From assembly GCF_003334405.1 (NCBI RefSeq), contig NZ_QOWM01000004.1: a stretch of DNA of 64,000 nucleotides. One strand, 5' to 3'. Below the pieces are notes generated by a model. The model did not search any database. It was not told where the DNA came from and was given only the letters and a program-made list of their open reading frames with translations. Both the position numbers and the translations under genes were made by a program. Positions 42,699 to 42,772 of this stretch are shown one piece after another (the first letter of the stretch is position 1; every line of letters begins with the position of its first letter). The stretch is from Escherichia coli (GTDB lineage: Bacteria > Pseudomonadota > Gammaproteobacteria > Enterobacterales > Enterobacteriaceae).

Positions 42699-42736
42699 GT
42701 TCTCTGTAAGCCTTATTTTATTGAAGCACGCAGGAT

Positions 42737-42754
42737 AGCTAACACGTGTACGCT
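42737..42754 (-). promoter_or_regulatory. FabR operator of the fabA promoter
   Basis: Palindrome agctaacacgtgtacgct (minus strand AGCGTACACGTGTTAGCT). Confidence 0.75.
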
Positions 42755-42755
42755 G

Positions 42756-42772
42756 AACAAGTCCGATCAGTT
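42756..42772 (-). promoter_or_regulatory. FadR binding site of the fabA promoter
   Basis: Minus strand reads AACTGATCGGACTTGTT; overlaps ycbZ stop codon. Confidence 0.75.

Follow-up and report, generated by a model that had tools for sequence, protein, structure and literature searches.

The proximal fabA promoter of Escherichia coli: adjoining FadR and FabR operators at the 3' end of ycbZ

The sequence immediately upstream of fabA in Escherichia coli is, with hardly any doubt, the proximal fabA promoter, a weak sigma-70 promoter on which FadR and FabR are bound side by side. The initial annotation of this stretch, made from the letters alone, had arrived at the same central reading of a fabA promoter with adjacent operators, and that reading is supported. 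Binding, regulation, the start sites, read-through from ycbZ and the CpxR-dependent promoter inside ycbZ have already been published; the literature and the sequence together establish the identity of the sites, their binding, the direction of regulation, the three start sites and the ycbZ-fabA co-transcript. The fabA promoter is the classic case of FadR repressing fatty-acid degradation while activating unsaturated fatty-acid synthesis, and FabR, as a second sensor, tunes the ratio of saturated to unsaturated fatty acids alongside FadR. The recognition of this promoter from raw sequence amounts to a sanity check. What is added here is modest and evolutionary only, i.e., the age of the stop-codon embedding and a lineage-specific decay of one half-site, both of which are mildly new in that they were not found stated in the literature covered.

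The window, i.e., the whole stretch of 64,000 nucleotides that was analysed, carries the E. coli chromosomal neighbourhood pqiABC-rmf-fabA-ycbZ-matP-ompA. A 1-kb query, annotated as rmf, fabA and ycbZ, matched all 5426 of 5426 complete E. coli genomes. The fabA coding sequence (3-hydroxydecanoyl-ACP dehydratase/isomerase, from the open reading frame and the annotation) lies on the minus strand at 42180-42698; its ATG is at 42698-42696, and 42699 is the base directly 5' of the start codon. Upstream of it, on the same strand, lies ycbZ (42767-44527; Lon-like AAA ATPase or putative protease), an open reading frame of 586 amino acids that ends in ...RWLNWFIPN before the stop codon TGA at 42769-42767. 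The interval 42000-43200 was read on both strands, and the positions of the sites were checked by script. Coordinates in MG1655 are obtained by adding 973,772 to those of the window. The two sequences differ at four of 7001 nt around the fabA promoter and at none within 42699-42800, and the sole difference inside fabA, at 42369, is synonymous. The locus is therefore the same as that of the E. coli K-12 fabA promoter, with an identical probe sequence and with all strain differences outside the promoter. As a side observation, the fabA-ycbZ segment is also found on four records labelled as plasmids in RefSeq E. coli assemblies, and a few genomes hold it twice; mis-assigned replicons or duplications are a possible cause.

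On the minus strand, 42772-42756 reads AACTGATCGGACTTGTT, as first annotated. This 17-bp imperfect dyad was assigned as the FadR operator on the basis of its match to the consensus and of a published EMSA. The final sense codon of ycbZ, AAC (Asn), supplies its first three positions, and the ycbZ TGA supplies positions 4-6; the claimed overlap of the FadR site with the stop codon is therefore real. The site agrees with the FadR consensus AACTGGTCCGACCTGTT at 14 of 17 positions, and when the 64 kb were searched with this consensus at three mismatches or fewer, a single match was returned, which was the site itself (0.10 expected). Long-chain acyl-CoA releases FadR from DNA, and the activation of the E. 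coli K-12 fabA promoter by FadR is said to have been described by Henry and Cronan in 1991/1992.

Published experiments connect this sequence directly with FadR. The consensus has been given as aaCTGGTCnGACC(T/A)Gtt (PMC9329746). The EMSA probe fabA_ec-BD-F is identical to the minus strand of the window from 42781 to 42726, and both the FadR site and the predicted FabR palindrome were marked on it (PMC4537474). The same study describes fabA and fabB as activated by FadR and repressed by FabR (PMC4537474). It was also found that the fabA promoter was shifted by wild-type FadR, not by the W60G mutant, and that the activity of a fabA-lacZ fusion was 2 to 2.5-fold lower in this mutant (PMC4259882); this activity depends on fadR and on oleate (PMC4537474, PMC4259882). 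With a unique consensus match and an EMSA on an identical probe, the identity of the FadR site is confirmed.

A single base, the C at 42755 on the minus strand, separates the FadR operator from the FabR operator, rather than the two bases that had been counted at first, and this 1-nt gap is kept across species, in nearly all loci that have both sites. The FabR operator occupies 42754-42737 on the minus strand, where the sequence reads AGCGTACACGTGTTAGCT at the coordinates initially given. It was assigned from a search with the fabB site, from the published probe and from conservation. The 18-mer had been called a perfect palindrome; it is an imperfect one, self-complementary at only 14 of its 18 positions (7 of 9 pairs). 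The parts that pair are AGC/GCT and the core ACACGTGT, whereas GT and TA remain unpaired. FabR is a TetR-family repressor that responds to unsaturated acyl thioesters, and its action at fabA is reportedly the subject of McCue 2001, Zhang 2002, Feng and Cronan 2009/2011 and Zhu 2009.

Because a search with the fabA 18-mer itself would have been circular, the 17-mer of the fabB FabR site was used as the query. It matched the fabA site on both strands and gave three matches in the window in total, against 0.08 expected; none of 100 shuffles of the window reached three. The operator core has been described as ACAnnTGT (PMC4804515). In Salmonella, FabR was found at fabA by ChIP-qPCR, and derepression was seen in a fabR mutant (PMC4804515). 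Further support for binding comes from DNA affinity chromatography and EMSA (cited in PMC4537474 and PMC3462791). The fabB-site search, the published probe and the Salmonella ChIP-qPCR agree in identifying the site as a FabR operator. That both motif matches are chance resemblances without function is scarcely conceivable. Such a view could point to the three mismatches of the FadR site and to the finding that 10 of 100 window shuffles yield one match to the FadR consensus at this stringency. However, two independent motifs adjoin each other at the right distance from fabA, they are conserved as far as Vibrio and duplicated at fabB, and the sites are bound both in vitro and in vivo (PMC4537474, PMC4804515).

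The third match of the fabB 17-mer, at 33972-33988 in the ycbX-rlmL spacer, was rejected as a FabR operator, as it forms the middle hairpin within an intergenic element, about 145 bp long, that is repeated in the genome. This element lies at 33917-34059 and has terminal inverted repeats at 33938-33953 and 34007-34022; its central hairpin, CGTAC-TTGT-GTACG, mimics a FabR site. A literature search for a connection between FabR and rlmL found none. The MG1655 record has no annotation for the element, whose sole Rfam match is sub-threshold (sX9, 25.8 bits). Each E. coli genome holds two to four copies. About 935 of 5426 genomes, e.g., APEC O1, lack the ycbX-rlmL copy. Another copy, located between qseE and qseG, has the same arms, CGTAC/GTACG, with a loop of different length.

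The core promoter between and around the two operators is weak. A consensus scan for sigma-70 promoters (at least 9 of 12 hexamer positions) over 42000-43400 found no promoter. This blank was treated as uninformative, since the promoter is activator-dependent, and weak hexamers are what activator dependence would lead one to expect. When hexamer matching was relaxed, the best pairs scored 7/12 and 8/12, and from these we infer the exact hexamers and their assignment to start sites. Three fabA start sites have been published, of which S1 is activated by FadR, S2 is repressed by FabR and S3 depends on CpxR, and S1 and S2 overlap (PMC7083825). The probable -35 of the FadR-activated promoter is TTGTTC (3/6; 42755-42760, minus strand), which shares bases with the FadR site at the 3' end of the latter. 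It is followed after 17 nt by the probable -10, TATCCT (4/6; 42732-42737, minus strand), and the FabR site ends on the first T of this hexamer. In fabA orthologues, this position is conserved as a TA(T/A)(C/T)CT-like sequence. The fabB hexamer TATTGT aligns with TATCCT, and the published fabB start site, at -37 (PMC7083825), lies 6 nt downstream of TATTGT. By analogy with fabB, S1 of fabA would be at about 42725-42726, which corresponds to about 1016497-1016498 in MG1655.

With +1 placed at about 42725, the FadR site would extend from about -47 to -31, and that of FabR from about -29 to -12, the latter filling the proposed 17-nt spacer together with the first base of the proposed -10. These spans agree with the published description of E. 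coli fabA, with FadR over the -40 region and a FabR site that overlaps the -10 region (PMC3462791); in the fad genes, FadR sites lie over the +1 instead. Set against the published binding data, the picture first drawn from the sequence stands: the EMSA probe has exactly the sequence found here, and FadR lies over -40 and FabR over -10. The best hexamer pair of the region (8/12) consists of TTAGCT at 42742-42737 and TAAAAT at 42720-42715, separated by 16 nt on the minus strand, with its -35 inside the FabR site. This candidate second promoter (42715-42742) may be that of the FabR-repressed S2, which would be at about 42707-42709 if TAAAAT is its -10. Feng and Cronan are said to have described, in 2009, a weak FabR-regulated promoter that overlaps the FadR-dependent one.

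Taken together, these positions suggest how the promoter may work. FadR, which belongs to the GntR family, binds 42772-42756, which would be centred near -40 and overlap the poor -35 TTGTTC, and activates transcription; long-chain acyl-CoA would free FadR from the DNA, and exogenous fatty acids would then reduce fabA expression. FabR on 42754-42737 would fill the space between -35 and -10, touch TATCCT and cover the -35 of the overlapping second promoter, and it would repress once loaded with unsaturated acyl thioesters. A cis-regulatory RNA at the fabA promoter was considered and rejected, as an Rfam scan of 41500-45300 (E ≤ 1) returned nothing there and only sub-threshold, terminator-like matches elsewhere. 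A smaller feature of the leader was also seen. A 9-mer, CTTACAGAG, just 5' of the start codon is common to fabA (42701-42709) and fabB (L083:1578-1586), outside the operator module that the two promoters have in common, and the block GGCTTA(C/T)nG is fairly conserved among fabA orthologues as well. It may serve both genes in ribosome binding or as part of the leader, or the likeness may be due to chance (rough p ~0.01).

Within E. coli, the promoter hardly varies. In at least 5388 of 5426 genomes, the core 41 bp (42732-42772, both sites and TATCCT) show no difference over the aligned part, and for a 92-bp promoter segment the identity is 99% or higher in 5370 of the 5426. Across species, 80 fabA loci were compared, taken from one scan of species-representative genomes with FabA and covering Enterobacterales, Pasteurellaceae and Vibrio. 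In 75 of these loci, a FabR-like site with a match of 13/18 or better lies no more than 160 nt from the fabA ATG, mostly at -56 or -57, and in 56 of the 75 a FadR-like core CTGATCGGACTTGTT (at least 12/15) lies exactly one base upstream of it. The layout of FadR site, one nucleotide and FabR site thus reaches Vibrio (56 of 80 species); the Vibrio loci L076 and L081 have it at -70/-52, with a slightly shorter distance to the ATG. A column-information profile was made from 65 loci (65 species) anchored on the FabR site. The mean information was 1.38 bits in the FadR site, 1.64 in the FabR site and 1.41 in the next six bases, compared with 0.64 in the adjacent ycbZ coding sequence and 0.85 in the remaining leader, so that the two operators are the best-conserved columns of the fabA upstream region.

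A different explanation for the conserved 36-bp block would be that it is kept mainly as the 3' end of ycbZ, or as a signal for read-through or processing between ycbZ and fabA, and not as operators. The block does begin inside ycbZ, and the two genes are co-transcribed. However, only 6 of its 36 bp belong to the open reading frame, conservation in the ycbZ coding sequence alongside is much lower than in the operator sites (0.64 bits vs. 1.38-1.64), and Rfam finds no RNA family at the block. The same module is also present at fabB, where there is no ycbZ and the neighbour mnmC is divergent, and direct binding assays, EMSA and ChIP, have been published (PMC4537474, PMC4804515, PMC4259882). This explanation is thereby very unlikely indeed; in effect, the fabB paralogue together with the EMSA and ChIP results in the literature already refutes it, and the block is best read as two operators.

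The likeness between the fabA and fabB promoters extends to the details. Both have the same module of a FadR site, one base, a FabR site and a -10; in the alignment, CTGATCGGACTTGTTC is common to both, followed by GCGTACA, GTGT and GCTAT. The fabB probe given in the literature lies 37 nt upstream of its gene, beside the divergent mnmC. Like fabA, fabB is activated by FadR, repressed by FabR and activated by CpxR (PMC4537474, PMC7083825). The differences are few. The FabR site of fabB, GCGTACAAGTGTACGC, is a better palindrome than that of fabA; the FadR site starts with GG in fabB and with AA in fabA; and the CpxR box is at -112 to -98 in fabB vs. -272 to -258 in fabA (PMC7083825). As mnmC is divergent, fabB has neither the stop-codon overlap nor the read-through that are found at fabA.

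Similar arrangements are known from other bacteria. In Shewanella oneidensis, the FadR and FabR sites of fabA are adjacent with a 1-nt gap, as in E. coli (PMC4537474). The Shewanella probe CTGATCGGAGTTGTT-T-AGCTTACACGTGTTCGCT agrees by eye with the E. coli sequence at 30 of 34 positions (PMC4537474). A search with the Shewanella composite 34-mer at three mismatches or fewer returned no match, and E. coli differs from it at four positions, just beyond this limit. In contrast to E. coli, Shewanella has a FadR site at fabA only and not at fabB (PMC4537474). Pseudomonas aeruginosa fabAB has a palindrome for the FabR-family protein DesT upstream of fabA, like the E. coli FabR site, and is likewise co-transcribed with the upstream operon while also having an intergenic promoter (PMC3462791). 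However, P. aeruginosa has no FadR, and the site for DesT is located upstream of a putative activator site of 30 bp and not over the -10 (PMC3462791).

The initial annotation had also held that all control of fabA transcription is packed into about 70 bp. This part of it fails, since further control elements lie inside ycbZ and upstream of it. The acid- and CpxR-dependent start S3 was reported 203 bp upstream of the ATG (PMC7083825), which maps here to 42901 on the minus strand, inside ycbZ; a -10-like hexamer, TATTAT, is found 5' of it at 42912-42907. The CpxR DNase I footprint extends from -287 to -255 relative to the fabA ATG (42953-42985, minus strand), and the CpxR box within it, GTAGAAGAAGGCAAA, from -272 to -258 (42970-42956, minus strand), also inside ycbZ (PMC7083825); both sequences were verified in the window. 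The position of S3 is consistent with the internal promoter within ycbZ of Conway et al. Besides S3, there is a further promoter upstream of ycbZ.

Read-through from ycbZ into this promoter had been anticipated from the sequence, and it does take place. RNA-seq defined a ycbZ-fabA operon (Conway et al.), and no terminator-like site was found on the minus strand from the ycbZ stop to fabA. The first such site 3' of ycbZ on this strand is the bidirectional intrinsic terminator at 42128-42152 between the convergent fabA and rmf, a hairpin with a perfect 11-bp stem and T-runs on both sides that acts on both strands. It is sometimes passed by rmf transcripts; these end ahead of the ycbZ-fabA operon or inside it, and some are antisense into fabA and ycbZ (Conway et al.). 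As the ycbZ reading frame closes within the FadR site and there is no terminator ahead of fabA, RNA that starts at the ycbZ promoter or at S3 (~42901) passes through the operators into fabA. The operators thus sit between the upstream promoters and fabA, a geometry in which bound FadR and FabR might also act as a roadblock to polymerase from the ycbZ and S3 promoters and make read-through lipid-regulated. This extension, drawn from the layout of the sites, is unlikely, as the passage of transcripts recorded in the literature counts against a strong roadblock. The preferred reading remains that of two operators controlling the proximal promoter.

The overlap between the stop codon and the FadR site is not peculiar to E. 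coli. In 51 loci, FadR positions 4-6 coincide with the ycbZ homologue's stop codon, which is TGA in 45 and TAA in six. The TGA loci (45 of 80 species) include Vibrio penaeicida, and all 45 have an intact FadR core. The six TAA loci all belong to the Erwiniaceae, their FadR core is degenerate, and they probably reflect a single evolutionary event. In Pectobacterium, Dickeya and Brenneria, where ycbZ ends elsewhere, the FabR site persists together with the right half of the FadR site, and the left half-site has been lost. The loci with a decayed left half-site are L029, L031-L034, L039, L041, L048, L051, L054, L056 and L058; in the Erwiniaceae, as in Pectobacterium, Dickeya and Brenneria, the FabR site remains at about -56 despite this decay.

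Judging from this distribution, the stop codon has probably been embedded in the FadR half-site since before the split of Vibrio and Enterobacterales. It is possible, although doubtful, that the overlap of stop codon and half-site represents an ancient dual-use constraint and that fabA is no longer activated by FadR, or less strongly so, in the Erwiniaceae, Pectobacterium, Dickeya and Brenneria. If this were true, FabR would be the main lipid-responsive control of fabA in these groups. The best "FadR" matches found at about -88 in Pectobacterium, Erwinia and Pantoea (AACTGGTTCAACCAG) were rejected as operators, as they encode a conserved motif, the C-terminal Asn-Trp-Phe of ycbZ. In the Photorhabdus loci L053, L060, L063, L068 and L069, extending the ycbZ homologue in frame puts its stop only 23-24 nt before the fabA ATG, so that the reading frame spans both operators; this late stop may be artificial and due to the end point of the tblastn segment, with a frame offset near the C-terminus.
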